Source: Deltaproteobacteria bacterium (GTDB taxonomy: Bacteria > CG2-30-53-67). Taken from it: DNA of 38,646 nt. Below the pieces are notes generated by a model. That model saw only the letters and a program-made list of their open reading frames with translations, had not been told where the DNA came from and ran no database searches. How positions within the stretch are numbered: the stretch's first letter is position 1; every line of letters starts with the position of its first letter. Positions 16,234 through 38,646 of the stretch are shown in pieces. The DNA lies in the NCBI GenBank assembly GCA_013151235.1, contig JAADIO010000028.1, positions 1 to 38,646 on the forward strand, in the 5' to 3' direction. The position numbers and the translations under genes were made by a program.

Positions 16234-16375
16234 CTCCTACGCTAACTTTTATTTGAACACCGATGCTGAAAGACCCGATCAACGTGCGAACTGTATACCC
16301 GGACACGAAACTCCTCACTGCCAAAGTCAGACCAGAATTCAATCACATACCGCCACGGCTATACGATGCCCCATC

Positions 16376-17626: not shown

Positions 17627-17783
17627 GCCACCCCTTTCAGACCCTGCGTACGGGTCGTCTTCTCCCTTCCAGGGTTGGTGTGCGGTCAGACTCAAAACAG
17701 TCCGCCCCTCCATACCCGGTCCGCCGTTGCCGGATTTATGCTCCTCAAGGTGAATCAGGCCGAGCCACCACACGCACCGGGTT

Positions 17784-18038: not shown

Positions 18039-18064
18039 AGCCACTTCCTTCCGGCAAATGCCTC

Positions 18065-19550: not shown

Positions 19551-21047
19551 TCAATGCCTATGATCGGTCGCCGGCGGGACCTGCACCGCACGACTGGGAA
19601 GGTTCCGCTCCCCGTCCTTGTTTGCAGAACCCCAGCCTCCGCCCATCGACTTGTAGCACTCGACGAACGCTATAAACAGAGCCTTCTTCGTCTTTATGTT
19701 CGCTATCTCGGTGCTGTACAGGTTCCGCTCGGCATCCAGAACATCAATATAGCTGACATACTGGGCATCGTATCGTTCCCGGGCGAAATGCAGGTAGTCC
19801 TTCAACGCCTTTATGTGGCGTTCCTGGATTTTCAATTTCTCCTGCAGTTTTCGGATCTTAAACAGGGAATCGTTCACTTCCTGCAGTGCCGTCTGAATGG
19901 TGCGCAAATATTCGTTGAGCAGTTCCACACGCTGCGCCTCCGCACGCTGGATATCTCCCTTAATCCGCCCGGCGGAAAAGATCGGACCTGCCACATCGAG
20001 GCCTGCGGACCAATAGTTCGCCGTATCCCTTAAAAATTCCGACAGCGCCGTACTGGCATATCCGAACAGCCCGGTAAGGGAGATCTCCGGATAATATTCA
20101 TCACGCACGACATCTATCATGGCATCGGCTGCAACCAGATTTTCTTCACTCATTCGTATGTCCGGGCGCCGCTCAAGCAGATCAGCGGGGAGCCCCTGTG
20201 GAATTTCAGGCATGATCGACATACCGATTCCCTTCCCTCTGCGGATTTTACCCGGATTACGTCCCAGCAAAACCGATAACGCATCCTCCTGCAGCGCTAT
20301 CTGCAGTTCAATGTCCGGAACGGTCTCCGCAACACTTTCAAACGCGGAACGTACTTGGGCCAGTTCCATATCCGAGACCTGCCCCCCACGGAATTTGTCT
20401 TCAAAAAGCCGCAAAAATTCCTCCCTTGACGCATAGGTCCGGCGGGCCGTATCCAACATACGATCCAGCGACAACAAACTCATGTAGCCTTCAGCCACAT
20501 CGGCGGTAAGAGTAAGGATCACAGCATCCCGTGCATACTCCGAAGCAAGAAGGTCCGCCCGTGCTGCTTCGCGTTTCTTGCGCAGTCGTCCCCATATATC
20601 CACTTCCCAGTTCACAGCGGCCTGGAACCTGTATGAAGACTGGCGCCGATCGGGGCCGAGGCTCAGAGACGGAATGTTCCGTTCCAAGCTCTGTTGTTCG
20701 CGCCCGGCTCCAATACCGTAGTCCAGACTCGGATAGAGAGCGGACTGAACGGACTGAAAACGCCCGGCGAACTCCTGCACCCTGGCGGTTGCGATGCGTA
20801 CGTCCTTATTTTTTTTGAGAGCAACATCTATGAGGTTGTTCAGCACCGGGTCATGGAACAGTTCCCACCAACGGACATTAGCTACCCCGGCCGCCACCGG
20901 ATACGCGATGCACCATTGCCGGGGCATCTTGACCTCAGGCCTTTTATAGACCCGCCCGGCCGTACACGCAGCACACAATACGACAAGCGTACAGACAATC
21001 AACAGACGTAGGACCGTCTTCTTTCCCTTCAGCGCGCTCGACCGCAT
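19551..21047 (-). CDS. Efflux outer-membrane factor lipoprotein (NodT/OprM family)
   Basis: Lipobox CAAC, WWELFHDPVLNNLI, WEVDIWGRLR, LPADLLERRPDI, YIDVLDAER and YKSMGGGW. Confidence 0.92.
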   Translation of the reverse strand: MRSSALKGKKTVLRLLIVCTLVVLCAACTAGRVYKRPEVKMPRQWCIAYPVAAGVANVRWWELFHDPVLNNLIDVALKKNKDVRIATARVQEFAGRFQSVQSALYPSLDYGIGAGREQQSLERNIPSLSLGPDRRQSSYRFQAAVNWEVDIWGRLRKKREAARADLLASEYARDAVILTLTADVAEGYMSLLSLDRMLDTARRTYASREEFLRLFEDKFRGGQVSDMELAQVRSAFESVAETVPDIELQIALQEDALSVLLGRNPGKIRRGKGIGMSIMPEIPQGLPADLLERRPDIRMSEENLVAADAMIDVVRDEYYPEISLTGLFGYASTALSEFLRDTANYWSAGLDVAGPIFSAGRIKGDIQRAEAQRVELLNEYLRTIQTALQEVNDSLFKIRKLQEKLKIQERHIKALKDYLHFARERYDAQYVSYIDVLDAERNLYSTEIANIKTKKALFIAFVECYKSMGGGWGSANKDGERNLPSRAVQVPPATDHRH

Positions 21048-21112
21048 CTCTCGTGATCCTTCAATCCGTTCCATTAACATGACATTTCGCACCGTACCAC
21101 CACCGGCAACGC

Positions 21113-22033
21113 TCACGGTTTTCCCACCGGCTTGGAGAACCGGGATACAAACTCCCATATAAACCTGCTTGTCGATACATCTCCGCCATCCGGCGACACG
21201 ATCTTTTCGGGCCAGCCGTGCCCCTCTCCCAGCACCAGGTATAGTTCAACCGGGGCGCCATCGCTGCATCTGTATTTCGTCTCTCTTGCACGTCCCCGCA
21301 CCGTACGCTCCACGGGGGGCGAACAGGACCGGGAGCGCGTCAACAGCCTCATGGTCTCCGGGACGGATCTGTGCCTGACCCCGGACTTACTGTGGGTCCC
21401 TTCCCCACCATTGAACGGTACGTTCTGATCCCGCTCGCCGTGTATATGGAGCACCGGTATGCCCCTGGCCGCATCACAGTTGTCGACCGCCAGGGTGCCT
21501 GCGACGGAGACAACCGCAGCTATCTCGTCCGGAATCTCGCAGGCAAGGCGATAGGCCATCATGGCTCCATTTGAAATCCCGGCGACATACACCCTGCGCC
21601 TGTCGATCGGATACCGGCCGGCGATCTTGCTGATAACCTCCTTTATGAAACGCACATCGTCCACCTGCTGCCTTACAGCACGGCCGCAACAACTCCCGGC
21701 ATTCCATACCCTCCTGTTCCTGTTAAAACTGAACCGCCCACCGGTACCGTTAGGATAGGCCACGATAAAGTGACCGGCATCGGCCACGGCATCCATACCC
21801 GCTATCTTTTCCATATGATTTGCATTGCCGGTCCCACCGTGCAGAACCAGCATCAACGGGACCTTGCCACCGCCAGGCAGAGACGGGCTGTAGAGAATAT
21901 AGCTACGCGCCTGTCCATCGACGACTATGGTGTGCAACCTGGACTGTCCGCATGCGGAAGAACTTCCCATGTTCACCCCCACCAAAAAGAGCGTGCACAA
22001 AAAGATGACTCGGATGACTCGAAAACAGATCAT
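21113..22033 (-). CDS. LpqC/PHB-depolymerase-like secreted esterase
   Basis: GGAGG RBS before ATG 22033, signal peptide, LVLHGG, WNAGSCCG, DDVRFI, GISNGAMMAYRLACE, HGERD and GHGWP. Confidence 0.88.
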   Translation of the reverse strand: MICFRVIRVIFLCTLFLVGVNMGSSSACGQSRLHTIVVDGQARSYILYSPSLPGGGKVPLMLVLHGGTGNANHMEKIAGMDAVADAGHFIVAYPNGTGGRFSFNRNRRVWNAGSCCGRAVRQQVDDVRFIKEVISKIAGRYPIDRRRVYVAGISNGAMMAYRLACEIPDEIAAVVSVAGTLAVDNCDAARGIPVLHIHGERDQNVPFNGGEGTHSKSGVRHRSVPETMRLLTRSRSCSPPVERTVRGRARETKYRCSDGAPVELYLVLGEGHGWPEKIVSPDGGDVSTSRFIWEFVSRFSKPVGKP

Positions 22034-22082
22034 GTTGCCTCCCTTGTCACATGCCGGAACCAACGCCCGGTGCCTACCCGAT

Positions 22083-22721
22083 TCATTCGCTTTCTCCGTC
22101 CAGCAGTTCCGCGGCACCCGCCTCGAACTCCTTCAATTGAGCAAGATTGTTATAAAGTTCGGTCACGATAGCCTCCAGCCACTTTATCTGCGCCTCTATG
22201 TTTTTCCTCTCTGACAGGATCTCTTCAATAGAGACGTGCTCGGGTGGCCTTCCCTGATGGTCGAAGAGAAAGCGAATCCCCTCGCCGATCTGCCTTTTGG
22301 CATTTATATACTCTACCTGCTCCGAGATAAAGGTCTTCGCCTTATTCGACTTGAAATGGCGTATGGCCATCTCCCGAAGTGCCTGTTGCTGCGTGTTCAA
22401 GCCGGCCGGAGCAACCTCGGCGCTCTTGGGTTCGGTATCGACAAGGCCTATTTTTTGCCTCTCTCCCGGCACGAAGAACTGGACAACCCTTCCGTCGTCC
22501 GCACGTACAAGAAGCGCCCATTTCACATCCCGGGCGTGTTCGTTCATCTCCTCCTTGAATATGCCGGCATCGGCATAGGTCTGGTAGAAGCAATACTCCT
22601 TCCGGTGCATCACAAACCCCACGAACTCATCCTGCTGGGAGCACGTGGGCACTTCGGCCCCCGGGGCTGTCTCTTTAGCGGACTTCCCGCTCTCGTCGTC
22701 TCTGTAATTCGCAGAATTCAT
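22083..22721 (-). CDS. Hypothetical protein with C-terminal coiled coil
   Basis: ATG 22721 after AGGTGG, co-directional in the operon. Heptad-like C-terminus (IEAQIKWLEAIVTELYNNLAQLKEFE). Start uncertain. Confidence 0.6.
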   Translation of the reverse strand: MNSANYRDDESGKSAKETAPGAEVPTCSQQDEFVGFVMHRKEYCFYQTYADAGIFKEEMNEHARDVKWALLVRADDGRVVQFFVPGERQKIGLVDTEPKSAEVAPAGLNTQQQALREMAIRHFKSNKAKTFISEQVEYINAKRQIGEGIRFLFDHQGRPPEHVSIEEILSERKNIEAQIKWLEAIVTELYNNLAQLKEFEAGAAELLDGESE

Positions 22722-22809
22722 TTTCCACCTAGAAAATTCATTCCCATACTCATCCCCCCCTCGACCAAATCCAACGCGGCAGCAAGCGACACGGTGCCCC
22801 ACCTTCCGT

Positions 22810-23718
22810 TCACGAATAACCGAATTCACACGCCAGCCGTACCACCTCGGGACGCAACCCTTTCCCGTCTCCGCGCCACGGCAACGATTCGTCGAGTGAA
22901 GGGATACGGGGCGTATGTGCCCTGAAGGCCGGACGACGAAGAAAATTCGGATCGTTGGCGAACAGTGCATTTATAGGTCCGAAGCCTGCAAATGGAGACC
23001 GTTCCGGATGCATCATGGAGTCCACGGCCTCCGCATCGTCACGGATCCCCAGCCAGTTGCAGATCCACTTGAGGTGTCTCTCCGGACTGCTCATGAAGGA
23101 TTCTCCTCGAATACGTATCCAACGCTCTGGAGCAACCTTGTCGAGAAAGTTCAGGATATTGACATTGATATCATGCCAGGCTATCTGCGGATCGACTGTG
23201 ACACTGTCACTCTCGAAGTCAAACGAGTTAACGAATAGCGCGAAGATACCGTTATTGAGATTCATGACCGACTTACCCTGCGGTATCGGGTGACGTACCA
23301 GATGGATAAATCTTGCACCGGGGAAGACTTGCAGGATCCTGTCCAGCCGTTCCATGGAGACCGTGTAGGCCGGACTCTTTTCCACCGGTATCAGGGGGTC
23401 CAGCCTGTCGACCAACTCACGATACACCTCACCGGTACAACGTTCCTCCCTTGCCGAGGCCCAGTGCAGCGCCATATGGATTGTGTCGCCGGTCTGTTCC
23501 CCGGCATATATCTCCGCAACAGCCCTGAGCAGGCCGTGCCTGCGGTTACTGTCTCCCCCGATTTCCTTGGATACCCGTCGCCAAAGGTCTTTCAGTTGCC
23601 GCACATTGAAAAGATTCAACTCTGGCAGACCGAACGCCTGAGGGTGTTGCCCAATCATGGCATTGATCACGGACGTATAGGAGCGCGGCGGCGCCATTAG
23701 AAAAAGCGGTTCAACCAT
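22810..23718 (-). CDS. Sulfotransferase, CurM/Ols ST-domain-like
   Basis: LFLMAPPRSYTS, GQHP..FGLPELNLF, VEKSPAY, FIHLVRHP and DPNFL. Starts right after the upstream stop. Confidence 0.85.
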   Translation of the reverse strand: MVEPLFLMAPPRSYTSVINAMIGQHPQAFGLPELNLFNVRQLKDLWRRVSKEIGGDSNRRHGLLRAVAEIYAGEQTGDTIHMALHWASAREERCTGEVYRELVDRLDPLIPVEKSPAYTVSMERLDRILQVFPGARFIHLVRHPIPQGKSVMNLNNGIFALFVNSFDFESDSVTVDPQIAWHDINVNILNFLDKVAPERWIRIRGESFMSSPERHLKWICNWLGIRDDAEAVDSMMHPERSPFAGFGPINALFANDPNFLRRPAFRAHTPRIPSLDESLPWRGDGKGLRPEVVRLACEFGYS

Positions 23719-23719
23719 A

Positions 23720-26569
23720 TCAAGGTACCCACGACCAGACTTCAACCTTAAAGAACCTGATCATCGCAAGCGACATAACCTTCCAAACCGGTTGCGGGCC
23801 GCATTCTATCTTCGCGTAACCCGTCATACCGGACTTAAGCAGACCGTCGCGGTTGTCCAGCAAGACCTGGACCTTTACAACATTACCCGAACTCTTCGGG
23901 GTCACCACGGAATCGATCTGCGTCACTTTCCCGTTGAAGATCTTATCGTAATATGTGAATGTCCTCCCGCGAACCGACGCGTCGGCAGCCGCATAGCCGA
24001 TATCCGGTTCGGGAACTTCGATCTCGGCCAGTACCTGCGAAGTGTTCTCTGCAATTCCGAACGGATCACCCTGCCCCAGATAATGCCCCTTCAGTTGCTT
24101 CAGGTTCATCCCGACCAGCTTGCCGTCGAAGGGCATACGTATAAAGGTCTGCTCCACTCTGGAGTTGTAGTAATCATATTTTTCCCGGTAGCTCTGCAAC
24201 TTTCCCTTTGCAGCCTCTATCTCGTCGGGAGTCGCTCCCGACTTCACCAACGCCAGTTTGGCGCGCAACTCTTCAACCTCCTTCGCATCCACCTCCTTCT
24301 CCTGTCTGGCGTCCTCCAATTCCTCCAGCGAGATCGTCTTTGTAACGTAAAGTCTTTCCATACGGGCCATTTTGTCACTGCTGAATTTGAGTTTGGTTTC
24401 CTGCACATTCAATTCACGCTCGACCAGTTGTAGCTCTTCCGGTCTCGGCTTGCTCATCAGCTCGTGAACAATCGCCTTCTGTTCATCTATCTTGGCCTTG
24501 TAAATCTGTAACTGCGAAGTATAGTCATCATCTGCCAGCTTGGCGACCACCGATCCCTTTTTCAGAAATTCACCGCCATCATAGTAGACATCCCTGATCA
24601 CTCCGGCGACCTCCGAAGTGATTTCCTGGCGCTGACTCGGCAGCACGACAAAACTCCCCGACGGCTCGTAATGGTAGGGCACTATCAGCAACACCAGCAG
24701 GGCGAACGGGGCCGAACGCATCAGATACTTGAAGACACCCCTTTTCTTGTCCGACCTTGCCACATCAATCGCTTCCTTATTGATGGAAACTTTCTTCCAC
24801 CGTTCGAATTGCAGAGACCGCTCATATACCTCGCTGATCTTTCTCGCCTTCGCTGCAAGACGAAAGAGCAACAAGACCACCAAGACTAGCGTTATAAAAA
24901 CCCCGGCGCCTCCGAAGTGGTATTTTACGTAACTGCCAAACATCAGGATAAAAACGACGAATGTCAGTATCATGAATAGCGCAGAGGCCAGTGCATACGC
25001 CACAAGCACATTCCGATCGAGTTTTCCATACCGATTGCCCTTCAGCTTGTTTACAATGGACAGCGCCGCCTTGGAACGCAAATTGTCCTCGTTGAGCCAG
25101 GCGACCATAAGATAATAGCCGCTGCTCTTCACCAGCGGATTGGCCGAGAGGTAGAGTGAAGCTACCGCTATTACCGCCAAAGTGAGGGAAAAGGACGCAA
25201 TCAGCGGGGTGGTCGGTCTTGATACGAACCAGGCCAGTATGCAAAGAGCGATCAGCGAGAAACGCCCCAGAAGAGGCGCTGCGTGAAACCATATACGCTC
25301 CCGCCGGAAAAGCCGCTCCCAGTTCCTTACCCTGACATGGAAGCGGGGATAAAAACCGAAATGAAGCTCTATGAAAAATGAATCTACCGGCAGGTTGTAG
25401 GAATAGGCAACAATGGCGATCAGAAAGGTTGCCAGAAGATTGTCCGTAAACATGCCTATCATGGTGTGGGCAAAGTAGGTAAAATGGACATAACGTATGC
25501 CAATCATGAACCGGGCGAAATCCTCCTTCATCATGTCCGCATGGCGGTAGGCCACAACAAACGCCGTAATAAAGAGGGGCGGAAGCAGGTAGACAACGTG
25601 CCGCAAGGGCCTACAGACCGGCAACACTGCCTTCAGGAAAGGCGCTGGATGGAATAGATGCCATCCCCTTTTTTCCGAACGATCGTCCCCGGTATGCCGG
25701 GGAGCCAGACGGGGATAGGCCTCCTCTATTATCAACCTGTTCAATATCTTCAATGCTCTTTTTTCACGATCCCCCAAGTCCCGTGACGACCTGCTGCGAA
25801 AAGACGAGGTTTCATCCATCAGACGTACGATCTCGTCCGTCAGGTGCAAGGACGGCTTCTTGGACAGGACCTGTTCGGAAAGATCGGGGATCTTAAGTAC
25901 ATCGTTGAGCCATTCAACACTGTTTTCGTGCGCTCCGGCTTCGTGCAGATCATAACCGTCGTTCCGTACGGCTGCACAAAGGTCTACGAGATCGGATGGA
26001 CGCCGGAATTCACGGGAAGTAAAATCAGCTTGGTCGGAGACGAGCCCCTTTATGCGGGTTGACTCCGGGCCGACCCCCTTCTCCTCCTTCTCAGAGGCAG
26101 CGCCGGAATCCCGACCGTCCCCGGCCATACCGACATCGGCCGCGCCGCGTGCAATTGCATCGATATCCCCGGCGTCGTGTGCCTCCGCACGTACCCCGGT
26201 ATCGGATGGACCCGTAAGACGGATAGGCTGATTATCCACCTTACGCCGGTAGGCGGCACACAAAGGGTGAGCCTCGGCATCAAGACCCAGGATCTTCATT
26301 TCGTCCAGAAGGGCAAACAGCTTTTCTAACTCCTCCATAGTGATGCCGTGACCGAACCGGTCCTCGAAGACGGAAGCCAACTTATCAAAGTTATCGCACA
26401 GCGGCATGACTTCGAGAACAAAGAACTGCCACGGCTCCAACTGATAGGTAAGCCCTTTCCAGTTGTCCTGTATCCTGTATTTCCAATCTCCGTCCACTGT
26501 CTCCCTGAAGGCAATCAGGCCCTGCCTCAATAAGGGGGGGAGTGCGACACGCTGAGAATTCGGAATCAA
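23720..26569 (-). CDS. PqqD/RRE-like + degenerate M50-peptidase-like membrane domain + HlyD-family membrane-fusion protein
   Basis: TTG start with AGGAGG. Multiple TM helices with AAPL and SANPL..SSGYY. C-terminal lipoyl-half/coiled-coil/IRMPFDG and LLKSGMTGYAKI..G. Confidence 0.8.
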   Translation of the reverse strand: MIPNSQRVALPPLLRQGLIAFRETVDGDWKYRIQDNWKGLTYQLEPWQFFVLEVMPLCDNFDKLASVFEDRFGHGITMEELEKLFALLDEMKILGLDAEAHPLCAAYRRKVDNQPIRLTGPSDTGVRAEAHDAGDIDAIARGAADVGMAGDGRDSGAASEKEEKGVGPESTRIKGLVSDQADFTSREFRRPSDLVDLCAAVRNDGYDLHEAGAHENSVEWLNDVLKIPDLSEQVLSKKPSLHLTDEIVRLMDETSSFRSRSSRDLGDREKRALKILNRLIIEEAYPRLAPRHTGDDRSEKRGWHLFHPAPFLKAVLPVCRPLRHVVYLLPPLFITAFVVAYRHADMMKEDFARFMIGIRYVHFTYFAHTMIGMFTDNLLATFLIAIVAYSYNLPVDSFFIELHFGFYPRFHVRVRNWERLFRRERIWFHAAPLLGRFSLIALCILAWFVSRPTTPLIASFSLTLAVIAVASLYLSANPLVKSSGYYLMVAWLNEDNLRSKAALSIVNKLKGNRYGKLDRNVLVAYALASALFMILTFVVFILMFGSYVKYHFGGAGVFITLVLVVLLLFRLAAKARKISEVYERSLQFERWKKVSINKEAIDVARSDKKRGVFKYLMRSAPFALLVLLIVPYHYEPSGSFVVLPSQRQEITSEVAGVIRDVYYDGGEFLKKGSVVAKLADDDYTSQLQIYKAKIDEQKAIVHELMSKPRPEELQLVERELNVQETKLKFSSDKMARMERLYVTKTISLEELEDARQEKEVDAKEVEELRAKLALVKSGATPDEIEAAKGKLQSYREKYDYYNSRVEQTFIRMPFDGKLVGMNLKQLKGHYLGQGDPFGIAENTSQVLAEIEVPEPDIGYAAADASVRGRTFTYYDKIFNGKVTQIDSVVTPKSSGNVVKVQVLLDNRDGLLKSGMTGYAKIECGPQPVWKVMSLAMIRFFKVEVWSWVP

Positions 26570-26599
26570 TTAAATAACCTCCTGATAATGGAACGGGAC

Positions 26600-28048
26600 T
26601 TAGAAAAACCCGTCCGGAGCAAAAAATATTTCACACCCTCCGCGCGGATTATGTACATACCGGTCTCCATCCAGGGGGAGAACACGCGGCCCGAAGGGAT
26701 TGGCCGTACCGAGGAAAAGCCCATATGGACTCGAGGACATGGTTCGCAGACCTATGTTATAGGGATTCCCCATGCCGTCTGTGGTTACCGGAACCCAGTT
26801 TTCCCCGTCAATGCTTCTGTAAAGATCAAACCCGGCCTGGTTTTCAAGTATGAACTCTTCGCCTACATTATTTACGATATTTATAAACGCCTCGGGCCAC
26901 GAATCCCTCTTCGCATAGCCAAGGAGACAGCTCCAATCGAAGGTTGAAAGATAGAGCCATCCTTTGTATTCGCACATACGCCAGAAATAGCCGTTGAAAA
27001 AGTTGTCGAAACCCGGCAGATACCCCGAAAGCGGGGTCTTGCGCCCAACCGGGGTAGTGCGCTCCTCGCCGACAATCAATTCCCAATATCCGTCCGGGTA
27101 TATTCGTATCAATTCCGGCGCCGCGGGACCAACCTTGTGCTTTCGGTCTATGCCTCCCCCCTGTATGCCGCTCCCCACGTAGAGCACGCCCTTGAAAGGA
27201 TACATACTCAGTGCGACCTGATTCTTCGGACCGCGGAATGCTCCACGATCCATCACCTTTTCCCACTTGTATGGAGGCTCACCCATTCCGTCGGTACGCC
27301 AGACTTGGTATCCATCCAGATTCAAAGTCCCCGCGTACAGATGGTCGCCCAGCCCGGCCATTTCGAAGACCGTCTGGTTGCCGGGGTCTCCGAACCCACG
27401 TTCACTCACCGGCTGCCAGCCTCCGGAGAGTGGATCACGGCTTTCATAAATAACCGAGTGCCCCGACACATTGGGATTCCCTCCACGTGAACCGGCAGCA
27501 GTGGTAAAAAGACGTCCCCTGAACTCAGTAAGAGACCGTATGGTGGTAACGGGCAGTCCAATCAGTCCCGGTTCGCACACCGCCTCGAAGTGCACCCCGT
27601 CTTCGCTTCGGAGCAGTAGGGGCCCCGGCCCCTTGGCCGGCGACCAAGTGCTGACGTAAAGGGCATCCTCGTACCGCCCCGGATCCCTGTAAGTGATCAT
27701 ACCGCGGTAGCCGAGTTCCCTGGGAATAGGCTTTCCATGGCTGCCTCGTATTATTGGGGATTTGAAGACACGCTCCCACTCGGCCTCGACCGGATCATAA
27801 CGCCATATCTCGGCACCCAGGTCCAGATCGAAGGGATCCTCCGGGCAGGGGACCGGCCAAGGGTCGAGTCCTATAGGCAACCTGGCTTTCATCAAGGGGA
27901 AATTCCCGCGAGTTGTGGCCACATACAGATGGTCCCTGAACCAGGCCATCGAGTGCGCGTAATTGTTCAAACCGTGGCCGAACCCCTCCCTGGCCACAAG
28001 GTGGAAATCTTTACTGCTGAATCCCGGATAAATACCCAGCTTGTTCAT
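26600..28048 (-). CDS. Hypothetical repeat (probable beta-propeller) protein
   Basis: Repeated units GFG..N....M..F.D.LY.GT / F.G.LY.G / Y.G.LY.ST. ATG overlaps the upstream stop (TAATG). Confidence 0.7.
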   Translation of the reverse strand: MNKLGIYPGFSSKDFHLVAREGFGHGLNNYAHSMAWFRDHLYVATTRGNFPLMKARLPIGLDPWPVPCPEDPFDLDLGAEIWRYDPVEAEWERVFKSPIIRGSHGKPIPRELGYRGMITYRDPGRYEDALYVSTWSPAKGPGPLLLRSEDGVHFEAVCEPGLIGLPVTTIRSLTEFRGRLFTTAAGSRGGNPNVSGHSVIYESRDPLSGGWQPVSERGFGDPGNQTVFEMAGLGDHLYAGTLNLDGYQVWRTDGMGEPPYKWEKVMDRGAFRGPKNQVALSMYPFKGVLYVGSGIQGGGIDRKHKVGPAAPELIRIYPDGYWELIVGEERTTPVGRKTPLSGYLPGFDNFFNGYFWRMCEYKGWLYLSTFDWSCLLGYAKRDSWPEAFINIVNNVGEEFILENQAGFDLYRSIDGENWVPVTTDGMGNPYNIGLRTMSSSPYGLFLGTANPFGPRVLPLDGDRYVHNPRGGCEIFFAPDGFF

Positions 28049-29133: not shown

Positions 29134-29136
29134 ATG

Positions 29137-30735: not shown

Positions 30736-30747
30736 TGGTCCATCCTT

Positions 30748-31032
30748 TCAGATACCCTTGTCCACCAGGAATGAGGCAACCCGGCCGACAGATAGATCGG
30801 ACACATAACTGCCGTCCTTCATAAGGAGGTCCTGGAATCCAAACTTGCGCTTGAAATGCTCTTCAATGGCCACGCACAACTGTATGATATCGACTGAGGC
30901 GAAATCCAGGTCCTTCACAAGTAGAGTCTTCCCCGTGACAGTATCTTCCAGGTCCAGCCCCCAGTCCTGTATCAGGTCCATAACAATCTCTATGACCACC
31001 TTCTCAGCATCCGACTTCCGATTTACAGGCAT
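30748..31032 (-). CDS. Stand-alone acyl carrier protein
   Basis: 94 aa, acidic, DLDFASVDIIQL phosphopantetheine motif, AIEEHF. Directly downstream of the PKS. Confidence 0.85.
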   Translation of the reverse strand: MPVNRKSDAEKVVIEIVMDLIQDWGLDLEDTVTGKTLLVKDLDFASVDIIQLCVAIEEHFKRKFGFQDLLMKDGSYVSDLSVGRVASFLVDKGI

Positions 31033-31050
31033 CCCTTAACTCCCACTCTC

Positions 31051-34000
31051 TTAATTCTGATGATCCGCAGCAATCGCGATAATACTTCGGTCCACCTCTT
31101 CCAGGCGTACCCCCACCACAGTGCCGTTCCGCGCCACAAGCGCAAGACCCCAACCGTTATCCGTGAATGATACCTCGAAGTCCTCCGGTCTTCCTTGCAG
31201 TCCCGACCCGAGATATTTCGCCGCCGCCTCCTTTGCACACCATATTCGTATAACCTTTTCACGCATCTCTTTCGAGCTGTGTCCAAGCGATTCACGCTCC
31301 TGCGGCGTCATGGCCGATTCCAGCAAATCGGTGCGCACCGCCCGTTCCAAGGACTCCACATCCACACCAACACCCAGCCCCGGCTCCGCCACCGCCGCTA
31401 CGCACAAGCCATGATCATGGCTGAGAGATACCGGCGGAGCAGGCGATACAACATCGCGCCATATGCCGTCCACGAACGGAGCGCCAGCGTCCTCGTGCCT
31501 GACCCTTATATCCGCCGGAAACAACAGCTTACCGCTCTTTTCGTAAACCCAATGGCGCACCGCCTCCTTTATGCATGCACGCCCCAGCAACCATTGGATC
31601 CGATACGAAAGCCCCCCCTCGAGGAGACGCCACTCCCTGCGCTCCTCCTCACCCAGGACGGCGCACGCCAATATCCTAAGGAAGATCCCGCTCGATTGAC
31701 GGCAGAAGTCCTCAGCCAAGTGAGGCAGGATCCAAACCAGGACCCCGGGAGCCCCGAGCATCTCCTTCACGCTGCCGAGACACCCTTTATGCGGGTTCAT
31801 CCGCACATTGAAGAACCGCTCCGGGACCGGATAAAAAACGTTAATAAGGTTTTCGACCTTGAGGATCGTTCTCCCCACACTGTCCACACACTCGAAATCC
31901 CATCTCTTGGGAGCATCTACATCACCGGGCAACAATCCCAACGGTTTGTGGCGGCCCTTCATCTTCAACCCCGACTGATCCTTGGGATGTGGTTGCCGGA
32001 TTTCGATACGCCCTATGGTTGCGGGGAAACAATTGAAACTCGTGCCAATCTTATGTGCTATCCAGTAAGCGGACAACTGCCCCACGGCATCGAGCAATAC
32101 CGGATTCAAGACCATTTCCGCGGTTTCATCGTCACGGAAAAATCCTCGCAGGGAAACAGGGGAGAGAAACGCATCCATTCCCTCTTCGTTCCACCCTTCG
32201 ATTTCCTGAATGCTCCGGAAGACGGGTCCGTGAAACATTCCTACACGGTAAAGGTCCCTTCCATCCCACCGCGGAGGGTGTACACTCTCCAGCTCCGCCA
32301 GCATCCCGGATATCTCCACATCTCCCCAGAGGAAATCGGCCGAAACAGCCTTCTTCCCCTCAATCAATGCAACGGCATGACATCTGTCGGGATCTCCCGG
32401 AGACGATTCGACCTGTATGGTAAGAACTGCTTTTCCTTCGTCCAATGCAATCCAATCGAATGCCCTGACATTTTCGATCGCAGAAACGGCCCGGTCTCCC
32501 CGAAACAGGACGGCCGCCTCGGCCAGGATCTCAAGTGTCACCATCAGCGGGACACAGGCCAGACCTGTAAGACAGGGATCAAAATCCGATACCGGTCCGG
32601 AGAGGACGTGATCCCGCAGAAAATTGTTCTCCGCAACGGACAGGGCGCACTCGGCAACCAGGTGTTCATCATCACATTCAACTATGGAATCGATAAACGG
32701 CGTATATAAATCCTCTGCAGAGGGGGCATGCCTGCCGGCATCATCCGGAAAGGCGTACCGTTCAACGATCCTTTGCTGCTGATCCAGGAAATCAGACATC
32801 AGGTCGAAGTGCCTCTTCATAACCCCGTCCAGGTCGTCCGCCTCATCGCCGGGAAGCATGTGATACCGTTCCGACGACGAGGCCCGCGGTACGGCGCAAA
32901 CAGTCCCCGGCAATCGTGACTCGGCACCCGACTCAACAATACTTTCCAGCTCATCCTTGTCATCTTTATCCAGGTGGATCACAGGCATGGTATTGTCCAA
33001 GCGCATGGTAGGCCGGCAAACCGCTGCAGCCCCCCCTATTTCAGCGATCCGGACATCGCGCGAAACGAACATACGCTCCAGCTTCACCCCCATGTCGTTT
33101 ACATAAAGAGTGCCGAGAGAGACAAGGAACTGTTCCAGACAGTTCTTCCGTTTCAGGTTCGTGGCCAGGGCCATGTACTCACGACCGGCCAGTATATCCT
33201 TGACGAAGGAGGCCAGGTTGCCTGACGGACCTACTTCCAGGAAGTACCGCACCCCCTCTTCGTACATCTTCAGTACGGTCTCGCGGAAACGGACCTTACT
33301 GGCCCATTGTCCGGCCGCAAGGGAGCGTACCCCTTCAGGATCGTCCGGAAAACAATCCACCGACACACAGGAATAGAGTGGTGTACGCGGGGCTCCCAAC
33401 CCTATCTTTTCGTAATAGGCAAGAAAGGCCCGACTGACCGCTGCGAATTGCGGCGTATGATATCCACGGTCGAACGGGAGGAGGGCGCAGAGCCCTCCCT
33501 TGGCGGTCAACCCCTTCCTGAGACGCTCGATACTCTCCGGCGGACCGAAAAGAACGAGCTGATTACGGCAATTCTCCATCGCCACGACCACCTCTTCGCC
33601 GAAAGGAACCATCTCTTTTTCTATCTCGGATCGCTCCAGAGCGCCCACAGTCATCAGGGCGCCTTTTGCAATACTCCCCTCCTCCAAAACTCTGAGATAG
33701 ACCTGGTTCAACTCACGCACGAAGTCAGCCAATTGCGAGCGGTCATCATACCGAATCGCCCCGGAGGCAACCAGCGCGGAAGACTCACCGGTGCTGTGCC
33801 CAACCATCACGTCCGGCACGACCCCGAAACGATCCAGGATCGCGTACATGGCCTGGCCTGCGACAAAAACCGATTCGGAACCTATATCCATCGTGTATAG
33901 CAACTCCTCCAGTTTCGCACGCCGTTCTTCGGTAAGTTCCGACGCCGGGGGGAGGAGGATATCGGTGCGGGTCTCCCCCTGCGTCTCGTTGTAGAGTCCT

Positions 34001-35829
34001 TTCCAGAAATCGAACCACTCGCGTACTTCATCAAAACAGATCATAAGCTCCGAGAACATGCCGAGATATTGAGACCCTTCGCCCGGGAAGAGAAACGCCA
34101 GCTTGCCGTCAAGGGGACGGCAACTGTAGACGATGCCGCTTCGGGTAGACCAGCGGTCGCGCACCGTATCTTTCCGTAACCTCTTCAAGGCATGTTCAAT
34201 CTTCTTCAAGCAGTCGTCACGGCTCTTTGCCACCAGTGCCAGCCGATCGGGGGCGGCGACAGACGTGGAAGCCAGCGTAGCGGCTACATCACACAACGCA
34301 AGATCCGGATTACCGGCGATCCACCCCGCCGTATGTTCCAGAATGTTCATCAATCCCATTCTGTCCGGCGCAGAGAACACGCATAACTCAAACGGCCACC
34401 CGGAACAGTCACGGGGCCGTCGCGCCCCTTCGGGCGCCTCCTCCAGTATGGCATGGCTGTTGATCCCTCCGAACCCGAAGGAATCAACACCCGCCATACG
34501 CTGTATCCCCGGGACAGAGATCCAGGGTTTGGGTTCCGTATTCACATAGAAGGGCGTACTCTCCATCCCCAACTTACCCGAAACCCGTTCACATCGCGTG
34601 GGGGGGAGGACCTTGTGATGAAGCGCCAGTGCACTCTTTATCAATCCTGCGATTCCCGCTGCAGGAATACAGTGGCTGATCATGGATTTTACGGAACCCA
34701 GGGCGACCGATCCCTGCAACCCCTTCCGCTCTCCGAAAACCCGTTTCAAGGCCGATATCTCCGTCCGGTCTCCAAGCGGAATTCCCGTCCCATGTGCTTC
34801 AATAAGTTCAACAGAAGCAGGATCAACACCGCTCTCGTCGTAGGCCCTGCTGATCGCAAGAGACTCCCCTTCCAGGCTTGGTGCCAACACCCCGTGCCCC
34901 CGCCCGTCGCTGGACAGACCCACCCCCCGGATTACCGCATAGACGCGATCCCGATCGGTGATTGCGTCGTGCAGCCGTTTGAGTACTACAACCCCCAGAC
35001 CTTCACCGAGAAGTGTCCCGTCACTCTTCTCGTCAAAGGGGAGAACCTCTCCCCGCTCACTAAGCGCCCCCAGCAGCGTGAATATTACCGAGACTTCGGC
35101 AGGTATGGATGCATTGACCCCTCCGGCCAGCATCAAGCGGCAACGCCTGTTTCGCAATTCATCCATGGCGGCGCTGACGGCTATGAGCGATGAAGAACAT
35201 GCCGCGTCCACGATATAATTGGGGCCCTTGAAATTCAACCTGTTAGCGATACGACCCGTCATGGCATTCGGTACAAGGGATGCAGCTATATCCGCGTTGA
35301 ACTGCGGCAGCTTGCTTTCCAGCAGGCCCCTAATTCGAGACAGCTTGTCCTCCGCCAGCGAGGGTATCATCCCCCTGAGGATCTCGATCGTCTGGTCGAT
35401 AACAATGTTGTGCTGTATAAGATTTCCCTGCCCTCGGTGGAGGTAGGTGCTGTGACCGAGTATGATCCCGGAATCCTCATGATCGTACTCCGCATTCAGG
35501 TAGCCGGCATCATCGAGGGCGTCACGGGCACTCTTCAGGGCAAGAAACTGGTCCGGCTCCCCACCGTCCACGGAATTGGGCATAATACCGAACTCCTTGG
35601 GGTCGAAACGATAAAGATCCCCGAGAAAACCGCCGTAAGGAGTCTGTATCCTACCGGAAGAGAGATAGCGATCAGCCTCCCATTCCACTGGAGGCTTGCC
35701 TACCGCATTGACGCCCGCGAGGATATTCCTCCAATATGTTTTCAGGTCCGGAGCGGAAGGGAACATGCACGCCATCCCGATTATGGCTATAGGCTCCGAC
35801 CTGTCCCGATCGTTCTTTCTAAGATTCAA
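31051..35829 (-). CDS. Type I PKS/PUFA-synthase-like protein KS-AT-DH-PPTase
   Basis: KS: IAIIGMAC, DAACSSS, HGTG, KSMISH, SFGFGG.N.H. AT: FPGEGSQ, GHSTG, GYHT. DH: FLRDHVLSG..P, FHGP, PVLLDA. Sfp-type PPTase: SLSH, GVDVE, WCAKEA. TTG start after AAGGGG (alternative GTG 35853). Confidence 0.92.
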   Translation of the reverse strand: MNLRKNDRDRSEPIAIIGMACMFPSAPDLKTYWRNILAGVNAVGKPPVEWEADRYLSSGRIQTPYGGFLGDLYRFDPKEFGIMPNSVDGGEPDQFLALKSARDALDDAGYLNAEYDHEDSGIILGHSTYLHRGQGNLIQHNIVIDQTIEILRGMIPSLAEDKLSRIRGLLESKLPQFNADIAASLVPNAMTGRIANRLNFKGPNYIVDAACSSSLIAVSAAMDELRNRRCRLMLAGGVNASIPAEVSVIFTLLGALSERGEVLPFDEKSDGTLLGEGLGVVVLKRLHDAITDRDRVYAVIRGVGLSSDGRGHGVLAPSLEGESLAISRAYDESGVDPASVELIEAHGTGIPLGDRTEISALKRVFGERKGLQGSVALGSVKSMISHCIPAAGIAGLIKSALALHHKVLPPTRCERVSGKLGMESTPFYVNTEPKPWISVPGIQRMAGVDSFGFGGINSHAILEEAPEGARRPRDCSGWPFELCVFSAPDRMGLMNILEHTAGWIAGNPDLALCDVAATLASTSVAAPDRLALVAKSRDDCLKKIEHALKRLRKDTVRDRWSTRSGIVYSCRPLDGKLAFLFPGEGSQYLGMFSELMICFDEVREWFDFWKGLYNETQGETRTDILLPPASELTEERRAKLEELLYTMDIGSESVFVAGQAMYAILDRFGVVPDVMVGHSTGESSALVASGAIRYDDRSQLADFVRELNQVYLRVLEEGSIAKGALMTVGALERSEIEKEMVPFGEEVVVAMENCRNQLVLFGPPESIERLRKGLTAKGGLCALLPFDRGYHTPQFAAVSRAFLAYYEKIGLGAPRTPLYSCVSVDCFPDDPEGVRSLAAGQWASKVRFRETVLKMYEEGVRYFLEVGPSGNLASFVKDILAGREYMALATNLKRKNCLEQFLVSLGTLYVNDMGVKLERMFVSRDVRIAEIGGAAAVCRPTMRLDNTMPVIHLDKDDKDELESIVESGAESRLPGTVCAVPRASSSERYHMLPGDEADDLDGVMKRHFDLMSDFLDQQQRIVERYAFPDDAGRHAPSAEDLYTPFIDSIVECDDEHLVAECALSVAENNFLRDHVLSGPVSDFDPCLTGLACVPLMVTLEILAEAAVLFRGDRAVSAIENVRAFDWIALDEGKAVLTIQVESSPGDPDRCHAVALIEGKKAVSADFLWGDVEISGMLAELESVHPPRWDGRDLYRVGMFHGPVFRSIQEIEGWNEEGMDAFLSPVSLRGFFRDDETAEMVLNPVLLDAVGQLSAYWIAHKIGTSFNCFPATIGRIEIRQPHPKDQSGLKMKGRHKPLGLLPGDVDAPKRWDFECVDSVGRTILKVENLINVFYPVPERFFNVRMNPHKGCLGSVKEMLGAPGVLVWILPHLAEDFCRQSSGIFLRILACAVLGEEERREWRLLEGGLSYRIQWLLGRACIKEAVRHWVYEKSGKLLFPADIRVRHEDAGAPFVDGIWRDVVSPAPPVSLSHDHGLCVAAVAEPGLGVGVDVESLERAVRTDLLESAMTPQERESLGHSSKEMREKVIRIWCAKEAAAKYLGSGLQGRPEDFEVSFTDNGWGLALVARNGTVVGVRLEEVDRSIIAIAADHQN

Positions 35830-35872
35830 ACTGTGTCCCCTTCTCACGTACACCCATGGACGGCAACCAGGG

Positions 35873-38646
35873 TCAACATTCCGCTCTCCCCCGTCCCGCC
35901 TTACTGCCCAGCCGGTTCAACTCCGCATTGGAGACGCACTCCATGTCGTCTATGGTCAAAACGATATCGCCGTTCGTATCGTAGAAACAGACATCAGCGC
36001 ACACAAGGTGGCTTTCTTCTACGCGCGTCCTTTCAAAACGCATGAAGAGTTTCTCCGGACAGGAATCAACATACCGGATGATTTTCCCGAACCTCGCGGG
36101 AAGGGCCGTCTCGTCCCGGAACTTTCGTGCCCATATGATAGCCATCTGGGCGGCCGCGTCGATCAGCGCCGGATCGTAACACCATAGGTTATCGTCACGA
36201 GTGGCACATCGCAGCCAGTACGACGGCTTCGACGATCTCAGCAACGATAGTGAACCTTCGGGCGTAATCTCCATGATCTCTTCGATCACCCGCAACAGCG
36301 GACCGTGGAACAACCAGTTGTCGTATGCCTCTTTAACCGAAAGCCCCTCGCCCCGGAACAACTTGGGAGCGAACGAAGGACGGGCGGGCAGTTCGTCCAC
36401 CAACAATATCCTGGCGCGGTAAGCTGCACGTTCCTTGACGAGATCGTCGATCAGCAGCCGGACCTCAACCTCAGATCCGTCTCCGTTCATTTCGGCAACT
36501 GGGCCGATACGAACATACACCTTGCGCTCACCTCCCTCGAAGCGTATACCGTGCAGCATCCTGCACTCTTCCACACGAAGAATTGTACGGCCGCGCCCGG
36601 CATGAATGGCAGCCTCCGACATAATCTCCAGCGCAGCCGCCATGGGAAGGACGGGAATGCCATCGATACAATGCTCCTGCAGATAGATATGATTCTTCTC
36701 CACATCCAACCGGAGAATCATATCCCCCCCGTCCCCATCCCTCTCCATGCAGCCATCCAACATGGGGCCGATGTAAGCCGAGGTATCAGCCTGGTATGAC
36801 TCGGTGGTTGCGCGCAGCTCTCTGTGCGCAGCCTCATGCGCCTCCCATCGCCCCTCGCCACAGACCACCTCGACATCCTGCCCGGCCGCAAGTAGTTCCT
36901 CCTTGAAGCACCTCCGTCCGGACTCCGCGCTCACCAGCCTGATCCCTCTCGCGGCAAATTTCTCTTCCGTGGCCGAGATTACCATTCCGGCTCCGAATTG
37001 CGTAGCCCCCCACGGCCCCCAGCACAAGGCCCTGACCTTCACCCCCGCTCCCCAAAGACCGCTCAACTGCCAGCAGATACGGTTCATAATCTCATTCGCC
37101 GTCGCGTAGTCAGTCTGACCGCTGTTGCCGTAACGTCCCGCCACAGAACTCATAACGACGAAGAATTTCAGTGACTCCGGATCGAGGTATTTCTGCAGCA
37201 ACATGAGTCCCATAACCTTTGTCTCAACGACTCGGGACCAACTATCGCCCGTCTTGTCCCTGAGCAATTTGTCCTCGATGATCCCGGCGCCGTGGATCAC
37301 GGCGTTTACCGAGCCATGCTCCCGTCGGATCTCTTCGAAGAGTCGACTCATCTCCCCTTCATCCATGACATCAACAGCGTAATAATGGACCGTTGCCCCC
37401 CTCCTTCTGAAATCATCCATGTTGTTTCGCATCTCCCTTTTCGCAAGTATCCCGCGGATCTTCCTTTCTATCTCGGCTGGCATAAGTTTCCGGCCGCCGG
37501 AGTGGGCATTGGAGATAAAATACCGCCGTAACTCGGCGGCGGTGGCCAGCGACGAAGTATCTTCCGGTTCTTCACCGGGCATGGGGCGGCGTCCCGTAAG
37601 GATCAAAACATTCCCGGGAAGGGCCAGATCACGGAGCAGTTCCGCGGTAATCCCTCTCCCCCCTCCCGTAGCCAAAACAACAAGATCACGCAGATCCCCT
37701 TCCGAGCCGGTAAGGTCAACCTCTTCCGGAACCGTTCTAAAGATCATCCGACTCCCATCTGCATACCCTATTTCCTGTCGTCCCCCCAAGTTTTCCATTT
37801 CGTTCAACAGGGCAGCGGCGACTTTATCTTCTCCGTCACCGGGGTCGAAATCCACCGCCTTCATGATAAACTGCGGCGCCTCGTCCAGGAAGGACTTGAG
37901 CAGTCCAACACCACCGCCCTGTATGGACAAGCCGTGGAGATCAGCGACCCCCGTGCGTCCGAACCCCCCTCCCATTGAGCTTGCAGAGATGAGGACCGCA
38001 CCGGGTTGCAGTCTTTCGTACAGATTCCGCAGGATTAGGAAAAAGGATTTCTCGTTGCGCAGCAACTCCATCCTCCACTCCTCCATGCCGGAGCGTGGAG
38101 AAATCCGTGCGGCAGACAGAGGAGCAAGATGGATCACACCATTTACACGTTCCGTATTTACAGCGAAGTCTATGCACCACTCGTTCAGTAATTCCTCACT
38201 CTCCAGGACAGAGCGCTGTACCACGTAAACCTTGCACCCCCTCTCCTCAAGAAGGTGTTTCAAAGAATCAGAGATACCGGAGATATCCTCCGTAAGCACG
38301 AAGAGGCCGCCTTCGATCGGCCGCATGACCGAGGGATCCAGTGCCTCTTCACAGGGGACCATGACATGCCGGAACGGAGGAATGTCGACAGCATCCTCTT
38401 CTTCCGTTCCGGCATAATCAAAAGGGACGGCAGGATCTCCCGTAACCGACAGGCTTTCAAGCTTCTTTATGATCCCCATGAGCGTTTGCTCTCTATTCAG
38501 CTCGGCGGTATCCCCCAACGCCTTTGCATACGATTCCGGAAGCCTCTTCATCAACTCCCCCACGATCTCCACCCTCTTGATCGAATCGATACCGAGATCC
38601 GCCTCCAGATCCTGATCCAGGCCGACCATCTCGCGGGGGTAGCCGG
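35873..38646 (-). CDS. PfaA-like type I PKS, C-terminal part ACP-KR-DH (5' partial)
   Basis: ACP GYPREMVGLDQDLEADLGIDSIKRVEI (PfaA signature). KR ATGGGRGIT, HGAG and GNSGQTDYATANE. DH YLQEHCIDGIPVLP, FHGP and DPALIDA. Confidence 0.92.
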   Translation of the reverse strand, partial: GYPREMVGLDQDLEADLGIDSIKRVEIVGELMKRLPESYAKALGDTAELNREQTLMGIIKKLESLSVTGDPAVPFDYAGTEEEDAVDIPPFRHVMVPCEEALDPSVMRPIEGGLFVLTEDISGISDSLKHLLEERGCKVYVVQRSVLESEELLNEWCIDFAVNTERVNGVIHLAPLSAARISPRSGMEEWRMELLRNEKSFFLILRNLYERLQPGAVLISASSMGGGFGRTGVADLHGLSIQGGGVGLLKSFLDEAPQFIMKAVDFDPGDGEDKVAAALLNEMENLGGRQEIGYADGSRMIFRTVPEEVDLTGSEGDLRDLVVLATGGGRGITAELLRDLALPGNVLILTGRRPMPGEEPEDTSSLATAAELRRYFISNAHSGGRKLMPAEIERKIRGILAKREMRNNMDDFRRRGATVHYYAVDVMDEGEMSRLFEEIRREHGSVNAVIHGAGIIEDKLLRDKTGDSWSRVVETKVMGLMLLQKYLDPESLKFFVVMSSVAGRYGNSGQTDYATANEIMNRICWQLSGLWGAGVKVRALCWGPWGATQFGAGMVISATEEKFAARGIRLVSAESGRRCFKEELLAAGQDVEVVCGEGRWEAHEAAHRELRATTESYQADTSAYIGPMLDGCMERDGDGGDMILRLDVEKNHIYLQEHCIDGIPVLPMAAALEIMSEAAIHAGRGRTILRVEECRMLHGIRFEGGERKVYVRIGPVAEMNGDGSEVEVRLLIDDLVKERAAYRARILLVDELPARPSFAPKLFRGEGLSVKEAYDNWLFHGPLLRVIEEIMEITPEGSLSLLRSSKPSYWLRCATRDDNLWCYDPALIDAAAQMAIIWARKFRDETALPARFGKIIRYVDSCPEKLFMRFERTRVEESHLVCADVCFYDTNGDIVLTIDDMECVSNAELNRLGSKAGRGRAEC

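Follow-up and report, generated by a model that had tools for sequence, protein, structure and literature searches.

A candidate pathway for an exported sulfated long-chain lipid in a conserved Pfa-like synthase gene cluster of a Deltaproteobacteria bacterium

Lipid synthases of the Pfa type are encoded by gene clusters that are common in bacterial genomes, and few products of the 'secondary lipid' kind are described as known (PMC13291983; PMC3098273). Here we report a cluster of 11 close-packed minus-strand genes at positions 19551-38646 of contig JAADIO010000028.1 (C45) from the genome of a Deltaproteobacteria bacterium (assembly GCA_013151235.1). The window, that is, the whole stretch of DNA analysed, is the entire contig of 38,646 nucleotides. 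The cluster combines two Pfa-like synthases with a discrete carrier protein, a sulfotransferase (ST) of the CurM/OLS kind, a set of putative tailoring proteins and parts of an envelope-spanning exit route. It is best explained as a horizontally mobile 'secondary lipid' pathway whose product would be an exported sulfated long-chain lipid, a reading that we regard as evenly balanced between right and wrong. As judged from homology searches, the gene set is conserved as a unit across phyla.

The genes were assigned by Pfam and NCBIfam family searches together with the translations of the open reading frames (ORFs; Table 1). The assignments bear out the order of eleven minus-strand genes given by an original prediction, which had been made from the nucleotide sequence alone. 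The tight coupling that it described is also present: the first six junctions leave 3-30 nt between the longest ORFs, and the stop codon of the hydrolase gene overlaps the start codon of the beta-propeller gene as TAATG. An assembly artefact is ruled out by the identical gene order in independent genomes.

The conservation of the cluster was assessed by scanning one genome per species with the propeller protein as query, which yielded 41 loci in at least six phyla. Partner genes were counted by tblastn with the window proteins in 10-kb flanks, and loci clipped by contig ends were kept in the counts (Table 1). The propeller is the best-conserved protein of the cluster, with 69-76% identity across phyla; such copies occur in metagenome-assembled genomes (MAGs) of Desulfobulbaceae, Syntrophales, Nitrospirota, Thermodesulfovibrionales, Candidatus Brocadia, Desulfobacterium and Spongiibacteraceae, and also in isolates of Pseudomonas/Aquipseudomonas and Ideonella. 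Identities of 45-50% were found in alphaproteobacteria (Roseivivax, Frigidibacter, Bosea), Nevskia, Oceanococcaceae and a Desulfobaccales MAG. The full gene order of the window is repeated at seven loci (L014, L016, L017, L018, L020, L021, L033) over a stretch that begins with the synthase and reaches at least the esterase; the last of these loci ends short of the position of the outer-membrane factor (OMF). Elsewhere the cluster genes are often rearranged but remain nearby. The original prediction would have been refuted if the tailoring and export genes did not accompany the polyketide synthase (PKS)-type genes in other genomes, and across the 41 loci they do co-occur. At loci without an ST gene, the ST was recovered from the whole genome in all four cases searched (three of the Pseudomonas group, one Ideonella), with 53-65% identity; in a fifth genome, that of Bosea, it already lay within the locus. 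In three mapped regions the ST gene stands directly upstream of the large synthase gene. Some loci carry additional genes. The Nevskia soli cluster (L041, 12506-14776) contains a short-chain dehydrogenase/reductase (SDR) gene and, on the opposite strand, a wax-ester synthase/DGAT gene (3.6e-70), and the alphaproteobacterial clusters add an SDR, a methyltransferase, a BNR-like protein and an FAD oxidase.

The propeller gene was absent from all 60 relatives of the present genome that were compared (two from its own genus, six from its family, five from its class and 47 that are more distant). Because of this absence and the high identity across phyla, the distribution points to an acquisition of the cluster by horizontal transfer.

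The synthase genes extend beyond the window. The original prediction had placed the upstream genes outside the contig, and they were recovered on contig C18, which ends in 69 bases identical to the reverse-complemented end of C45, an overlap that falls within an acyl carrier protein (ACP) motif. The PfaA model (TIGR02813) finds a further match in an open frame that is cut off by the 3' end of C18. The 5' part of the large synthase occupies positions 71408-76922 of C18 on the plus strand and comprises an N-terminal region of ~320 aa without assigned family, an enoyl reductase (ER), a ketosynthase (KS), an acyltransferase (AT) and the start of the ACP. By residue, an NMO domain spans 321-537 (1.4e-10) and a FabK-type domain 324-585 (8.4e-21), followed by the KS at 691-1081 and the AT at 1248-1551, and the part in the window covers positions 1633-2579 of TIGR02813. 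Read as a direct join, the two parts form an ORF of 2739 aa with a single ACP motif at residue 1834; the large synthase frames of two Pseudomonas-group loci (L063 and L061) likewise hold a single ACP motif. A tandem ACP array is absent on this reading, although the contig break might hide a collapsed repeat.

The synthase set thus consists of two proteins with the domain orders ER-KS-AT-ACP-KR-DH and KS-AT-DH-PPTase, where KR, DH and PPTase denote ketoreductase, dehydratase and phosphopantetheinyl transferase. In the translations, both KS domains keep the Cys-His-His residues and both AT domains keep the GHSxG motif. The C-terminal PPTase of the second synthase is of the Sfp type, and the 330 relatives of this protein all carry generic names. 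The genome has a completeness of 99.25% and contains only five KS places, two of which are the cluster synthases; the other three are two ORFs of FabF/FabB size (428 and 430 aa) and one weak partial match. No KS-chain length factor (KS-CLF) protein was found among these five places and no FabA-type DH in the genome, both synthase DH domains being of the PS-DH type. Type III PKS were also absent from the genome (PF00195 unmatched), and PF00975 thioesterases (TEs) matched neither in the cluster proteins nor in the whole genome. The PfaA model stayed below its cut-off of 1010.1 bits in every part, with 764.8 bits for the C18 part, 516.9 bits for the second synthase and 247 bits for the part in the window.

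These results agree with the earlier view that the genes do not form a canonical cluster for the polyunsaturated fatty acids (PUFAs) EPA or DHA, since KS-CLF and FabA-type DH are lacking and TIGR02813 remains below its cut-off. The proposed absence of a PfaC-like KS-CLF and FabA-type DH holds, whereas that of PfaD does not, as a PfaD-type ER is present in fused form on C18. The ACP motif is of the predicted LGIDSI type, and the large synthase has one ACP instead of a PUFA-type array if the contigs are joined directly.

The ST was compared with all sequences of the Protein Data Bank (PDB). Its only clear relatives there were the ST domains of CurM (4gbm; 1.6e-19) and OLS (4gox; 2.9e-15), with ~260 residues aligned, followed by tyrosine and heparan sulfotransferases at 0.03-0.07 (best 0.034). 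The protein keeps a loop of the type that binds 3'-phosphoadenosine-5'-phosphosulfate (PAPS), PPRSYTS, as well as the Glu of a PEL motif and an RHP motif. The PEL Glu stands at what we take to be the position of the catalytic base of CurM, and the residue two after it is Asn in this ST, where the CurM/OLS family has His. The protein is therefore predicted to be a stand-alone PAPS-type sulfotransferase of the CurM/OLS kind. It is encoded by a separate gene, five genes downstream of the second synthase and four downstream of the carrier protein. The PAPS-binding loop is degenerate (for example, APGAEAAR instead of PPRSYTS) in ST copies of Nevskia (L041, L044, L046, L047, L050) and of alphaproteobacteria (L036, L040, L043, L053). 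A second ST-like ORF was present in both alphaproteobacterial loci examined for one (L036 and L048), and the degenerate copy beside the propeller gene may be a pseudo-enzyme.

The small protein encoded next to the ST has a conserved helical core of ~125 aa (10 sequences) without a described family, and its gene adjoins that of the ST also in Pseudomonas and Ideonella. Four relatives of the ST, 570-591 aa long and 60-62% identical, exceed the ST in length; in one of them (P0273) the extra part consists of two tandem copies of the small protein (2e-21 and 4e-11) fused to the ST. Because of this fusion and the adjacency of the genes, the ST and the small protein probably form a functional pair. 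An ST-related protein of 803 aa (P0276) was considered as a propeller-ST fusion and rejected, as BLASTP found no propeller in it. At one locus of the Pseudomonas group (L063), a divergent operon encodes a sulfatase-family protein, the ST, the small protein, the esterase, a CysD-type protein and a CysN/APS-kinase (adenosine 5'-phosphosulfate kinase); the last two genes are the predicted source of a dedicated PAPS supply. In the genome of the window, an APS kinase is encoded outside the cluster.

The discrete carrier protein matched the ACP models of NCBIfam below their cut-offs in all cases (best 5.2e-5), and its serine motif, F(A/E)S(V/I/M)D, is unusual. The serine is kept in 31 of 32 aligned copies; at the one remaining locus (L045, 13332-13601) it is replaced by Leu. 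The neighbouring enzyme belongs to the nucleotide pyrophosphatase/phosphodiesterase (NPP) type, with a PF01663 match of 147.4 bits (cut-off 23), and a profile of 17 orthologues retrieved a bacterial NPP from the PDB (3.1e-7). Residues T53, D9, D217, H224, D279, H280 and H432 are invariant in the 17 sequences; T53 aligns with the nucleophile region of NPP, and the other six are presumably the metal ligands, by comparison with the NPP motifs. The sequence contains neither a transmembrane segment nor a signal, and the enzyme is predicted to be cytoplasmic with an intact active site. Its gene adjoins or lies near that of the carrier protein in most loci. Our guesses at its role are that it cleaves the phosphopantetheine arm or that it turns over a sulfonucleotide.

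In the alpha/beta hydrolase, the motif H98-S99-x-G101 and a C-terminal H269 are invariant in 17 aligned sequences, and the protein is a candidate chain-release or transfer enzyme of the cytoplasmic serine type. A comparison with the PDB gave 303 generic alpha/beta hydrolase matches, and the CurM TE was not named among the best 60 of them. The hydrolase with its C-terminal DUF6316 domain and the propeller form one open frame in 5 of the 41 loci (L022-L026). A predicted complex of the two proteins had a score of 0.00, which is evidence neither way. In a Syntrophales MAG (L016, 8922-10000), two consecutive stop codons separate the hydrolase from an in-frame DUF6316 segment; either a gene split or a sequencing error could account for this.

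The propeller protein has no match in Pfam or NCBIfam, and its profile found no matches among PDB sequences. An AlphaFold (AF2) model (pLDDT 91.7, pTM 0.92) has a beta-propeller fold, for which a fold search returned generic propellers only (TMq <=0.48). Names in the protein atlas are limited to 'hypothetical' and an automatic 'putative exo-alpha-sialidase'. The family comprises 4343 representatives at E <= 1e-3 and 832 at E <= 1e-30, and many of the closest relatives are 730-870 aa long. Among nine long relatives that were scanned, three carry S-adenosylmethionine (SAM) methyltransferases, one of which also matches the cyclopropane-fatty-acid-synthase (CMAS) family; one carries a PlsC-type acyltransferase, one an NAD-dependent epimerase/reductase and three extracellular-type domains (TSP3, PKD, subtilase), and one contains nothing recognisable. 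Because of these gene fusions, we infer that the propeller may serve as a platform for lipid-tailoring or lipid-releasing enzymes.

The synthases, the carrier protein, the NPP-type enzyme, the hydrolase, the propeller and the ST have no export signals, whereas the esterase and the OMF do: the N-terminus of the esterase is hydrophobic and of the export type, and the OMF has a hydrophobic segment at residues 49-67 followed by Cys, which resembles a lipoprotein signal. The adaptor contains eight hydrophobic segments (two of them overlapping) at residues 322-630 and a HlyD part from residue ~640. Its predicted layout is a cytoplasmic N-terminal part, an inner-membrane domain and a periplasmic HlyD-type adaptor, which also shows a weak match to the DevB family (1.3e-6). 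The original prediction had called this gene M50-HlyD; the HlyD part stands (HlyD_D23, HlyD_3), whereas the M50 part fails for lack of an HExxH motif. Pfam M50 was unmatched in the protein at E 0.01, an HxxxH motif does not occur anywhere in it, and the membrane part resembles the daptide_HExxH intramembrane protease model far below the cut-off (1e-9, 38 bits, cut-off 300). HExxH is absent from 35 of 36 orthologous adaptor frames, and because this motif is missing the M50-like part is probably a pseudo-protease. The sole adaptor with HExxH, from a Desulfobaccales MAG (L042; HEVKH at residue 168), is also the most distant one (23% identity) and may be a still-active, ancestor-like form.

The core synthases are of a kind that has been catalogued but not characterised, and the tailoring and export set is undescribed as far as our literature searches reach. 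A survey of pfa-like genes distinguishes 20 cluster types, 14 of them without known product, including type S from the single genome of Desulfobacterium autotrophicum and type O from Dinoroseobacter and others (Shulse & Allen 2011; PMC3098273). A fused pfaDA together with a pfaBC-PPTase is noted for Renibacterium as an uncharacterised synthase arrangement (PMC13291983). As described in the passages on the secondary lipid synthases (types M-T; PMC3098273) and on ArsA-ArsD, these systems likewise have an ER fused before a PfaA-like KS-AT-ACP-KR and a second KS-AT-DH protein that ends in a PPTase; they share a patchy distribution spread by transfer, and their known products are long-chain lipids other than PUFAs. 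ArsA synthesises the C23-C25 chains of the phenolic lipids of Azotobacter and ArsD is the PPTase (PMC4824345), and the chains of Ars products are given as C22-C26 (PMC3098273; PMC4824345). In contrast to Ars, the present cluster has no type III PKS partners (ArsB/ArsC; PF00195 unmatched in the genome), by which a phenolic-lipid cluster was rejected. The same passages on types M-T and Ars make no mention of a carrier protein, an NPP-type enzyme, a hydrolase-DUF6316, a propeller, a CurM-type ST with partner, a pseudo-protease-HlyD adaptor or an OMF. Literature searches found no publication that describes this gene combination and, as the original prediction had supposed, no characterised product for it.

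Other known systems share parts of the cluster. With PfaABCDE it has in common the KS-AT-ACP-KR backbone, the NMO-family ER, the Sfp-type PPTase and the ACP motif of the LGIDSI type, but it differs from it by the single ACP and the lack of KS-CLF and FabA-type dehydratases; a PUFA cluster was rejected for the missing KS-CLF, FabA-type DH and ACP array. The heterocyst glycolipid and DevBCA-HgdD systems of Anabaena/Nostoc follow the same logic of a hydroxylated chain from a Pfa-like synthase combined with a HlyD-type adaptor and a TolC-type channel. Their defining parts, namely the ABC partner (DevC/DevA), the glycosyltransferase and the thioester reductase, are missing here, which excludes a heterocyst-glycolipid cluster, and the head group would be sulfate instead. 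Of a tripartite envelope exporter, the adaptor and the OMF are present, while none of the genes at 13459-38646 encodes an ABC, RND or MFS component. The ACP-ST-TE off-loading module of CurM/OLS shares the ST family, the PAPS-type loop and the PEL Glu; in contrast, the ST of the window is free-standing with a helical partner and has export genes attached to it. The CurM TE is a member of PF00975, a family without match in the present cluster, where another hydrolase could substitute for it.

If the product is an exported sulfated lipid, the synthases would build a long chain that retains at least one hydroxyl and is largely saturated, because the cluster encodes an ER and PKS-type DHs and no FabA-type isomerase. 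The chain would be processed while bound to the discrete carrier protein and set free by the hydrolase, the propeller acting as a tailoring scaffold, and the ST would transfer sulfate from PAPS to a hydroxyl of the chain. The anionic lipid would then cross the envelope by way of the adaptor and the TolC-type channel and may be trimmed there by the exported esterase. In favour of a retained sulfate are the absence of a PF00975 thioesterase from cluster and genome, the two ST paralogues of the alphaproteobacterial versions and the envelope-spanning exit route nearby; moreover, ST-bearing homologues without TE are described as probably yielding sulfated metabolites (PMC11730487). Several points weigh against this reading. 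The closest solved relatives of the ST are two enzymes whose sulfate is later eliminated, and the ST copy adjacent to the propeller gene has a degenerate PAPS-binding loop in Nevskia and some alphaproteobacteria. In the two Ideonella genomes this query recovered no NPP gene, and the carrier protein is missing from their loci, so these two genes are not essential to the core chemistry. The OMF and the small protein were found at only 6 and 7 of the 41 loci within the 10-kb flanks, in part an effect of the flank limit, and the ACP count depends on reading the 69-nt overlap as a direct join. Finally, no ABC, RND or MFS transporter is encoded at 13459-38646 (no search for a dedicated partner was made elsewhere in the genome or in the relatives' loci), and the conserved set contains no energised inner-membrane transporter that would drive export. 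A more far-reaching claim, that the cluster makes a new class of sulfated very-long-chain lipids by means of a free-standing ST whose sulfate is kept, a propeller docking platform and a pump-less exit through a dead-protease-HlyD adaptor and TolC, all of them unprecedented, is put forward tentatively and leans to the doubtful side.

The main rival product is a terminal olefin, and the ST of the CurM/OLS kind makes the alternative 'sulfated lipid or olefin' of the original prediction an apt one. In the olefin route, the ST would activate a beta-hydroxyacyl chain on the carrier protein, and the hydrolase, together with DUF6316 and the propeller, would cleave the thioester and thereby trigger decarboxylation and loss of the sulfate to give a long terminal alkene, a mechanism that matches the description in PMC11730487. 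The best solved relatives of the ST are indeed the activating enzymes of CurM and OLS, a conserved carrier protein and an alpha/beta hydrolase with intact Ser-His are encoded beside it, and the synthases have no thioesterase of their own. However, the hydrolase is of the Abhydrolase_1/6 type, with no PF00975-type thioesterase in cluster or genome and the CurM TE unnamed among its best 60 of 303 PDB matches, and the ST is fused to neither an ACP nor a TE. Moreover, a TolC-type exit, an exported esterase, a sulfatase-family gene and a second ST paralogue would all be superfluous for a hydrocarbon, and we consider this route unlikely. The lipid could instead stay with the cell as a structural component of the outer membrane or a surface layer, sulfated or modified in some other way and comparable to heterocyst glycolipids or cyst lipids, with the adaptor and OMF serving its insertion. 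The weak DevB-family match of the adaptor (1.3e-6) and the lipoprotein-type hydrolases adjoining the OMF are consistent with this, and the sole characterised relatives of such synthases are described as making envelope lipids (PMC3098273; PMC13291983). Such an envelope lipid would be a variant of the exported sulfated lipid that differs only in the final location of the product, and it seems quite unlikely.

The genes might also represent two adjacent systems, a lipid synthase with its release enzymes and a separate sulfation-secretion module (ST, small protein, adaptor, OMF and esterase) acting on another substrate such as a peptide or glycan, for which RaxST/RaxA/RaxC is a model. The ST arm does form a separate divergent operon in the Pseudomonas group, the membrane part of the adaptor resembles peptide-maturation proteases, and the Sulfotransfer_3 family also gives weak matches to tyrosine sulfotransferases. 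These matches are at chance level (0.034) compared with 1.6e-19 for the CurM ST, and the protease motif of the adaptor is missing. A peptidase-containing ABC exporter is not encoded among the window genes at 13459-38646, and the columns of the small protein listed as invariant or 90% conserved include no Tyr. The modules, moreover, remain linked through many rearrangements and across phyla. We consider two independent systems very unlikely.

The minus-strand run continues past position 19551 down to 13459 with secreted proteins. The genes at 15202-19354 are a possible extension of the cluster; their products (the BNR-like protein, unk479 and the second PHB-depolymerase-like protein) have export-type N-termini. 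The gaps in this extension (142-249 nt) are wider than those of the core, and a weak terminator-like site lies between the OMF gene and the next gene. Of the 6 loci with an OMF match, 3 carry an orthologue of the BNR-like protein beside the OMF, and 1 carries unk479. Just past these secreted hydrolases, positions 12231-15150 encode a lipase resembling chlorophyllase/PAF-acetylhydrolase (plus strand) and a secreted thermolysin-type M4 peptidase, the latter of which was absent from all 41 propeller loci (tblastn, 10-kb flanks). At the other end, the large synthase gene is preceded on C18 by an EF-hand protein gene and a heat-shock gene set, which are outside the cluster. Positions 1-2876 of the window hold the end of a polysaccharide-type gene set of lower G + C content (0.41), with the C-terminus of a flippase-like protein, a second sulfotransferase (Sulfotransfer_3 1.5e-29, also Sulfotransfer_1) and a family 2 glycosyltransferase; the genome contains eight Sulfotransfer_3 places in total. 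Between the polysaccharide genes and a peptide ABC transporter, positions 2975-5820 contain remains of mobile elements, namely an IS-type DDE transposase (DUF772 + DDE_Tnp_1), an ORC/CDC6-like fragment and an ORF of 197 aa of the phage-integrase family.

Table 1. Features of the minus-strand gene run in the window, in order of transcription, and number of propeller loci with the respective gene within 10 kb of the propeller gene (PHB, polyhydroxybutyrate).
Feature	Positions	Strand	Evidence	Loci (of 41)
Large synthase, 3' part (ACP end, KR, PKS-type double-hotdog DH)	35873-38646 (ORF 35873-38644)	-	KR 2.6e-36, PKS_DH_N, PS-DH	
Second synthase, KS-AT-DH-PPTase	31051-35853	-	ketoacyl-synt 1.4e-55, Acyl_transf_1 2.8e-20, PS-DH 1.4e-8, ACPS 4.5e-17	29
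Discrete carrier protein, 94 aa	30748-31032	-	weak NCBIfam ACP matches	31
NPP/alkaline-phosphatase-superfamily phosphodiesterase-like enzyme	29137-30735	-	PF01663 1e-42	33
Alpha/beta hydrolase with C-terminal DUF6316	28048-29133	-	Abhydrolase_1 1.8e-26, DUF6316 1.4e-15	35
Beta-propeller protein	26600-28048	-	no Pfam/NCBIfam family; AlphaFold model	
Adaptor (polytopic membrane part + HlyD adaptor)	23720-26569	-	HlyD_D23 6.4e-12, HlyD_3 1.1e-10, RND_mfp 3.4e-23	36
Sulfotransferase	22810-23745 (likely start ATG 23718)	-	Sulfotransfer_3 4.3e-23	24
Small helical protein	22083-22970 (longest ORF; likely start 22721 or 22610)	-	no family	7
Exported PHB-depolymerase-type esterase	21113-22117	-	NF050058 163.6 bits (cut-off 150), Esterase_PHB 1.8e-11	22
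TolC-type outer-membrane factor	19551-21158	-	OEP 7.6e-46, two stretches	6
Secreted BNR-like protein	18065-19354	-	BNR_2 6.3e-5, below cut-off	
Secreted protein unk479, no described family	16376-17815	-		
Second PHB-depolymerase-like lipoprotein	15202-16233	-	NF050058 6e-17, below cut-off	

The carriers of this gene set include sulfate reducers, Nitrospirota, anammox bacteria, strains of the Pseudomonas group and of Burkholderiales, Nevskia and roseobacters. Several of them are cultured type or collection strains, among them Aquipseudomonas alcaligenes NBRC 14159, Nevskia soli DSM 19509, Ideonella azotifigens JCM 15503 and Roseivivax halotolerans JCM 10271, so that the product, the fate of the sulfate and the pump-less export are directly testable. 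The propeller family, with its 832 representatives at E <= 1e-30, is large and without assigned function. If the proposed pathway is correct, its product would be a new anionic long-chain lipid of aquatic, sediment and wastewater bacteria, which could affect cell surfaces, biofilms and granules and could serve as a biomarker.

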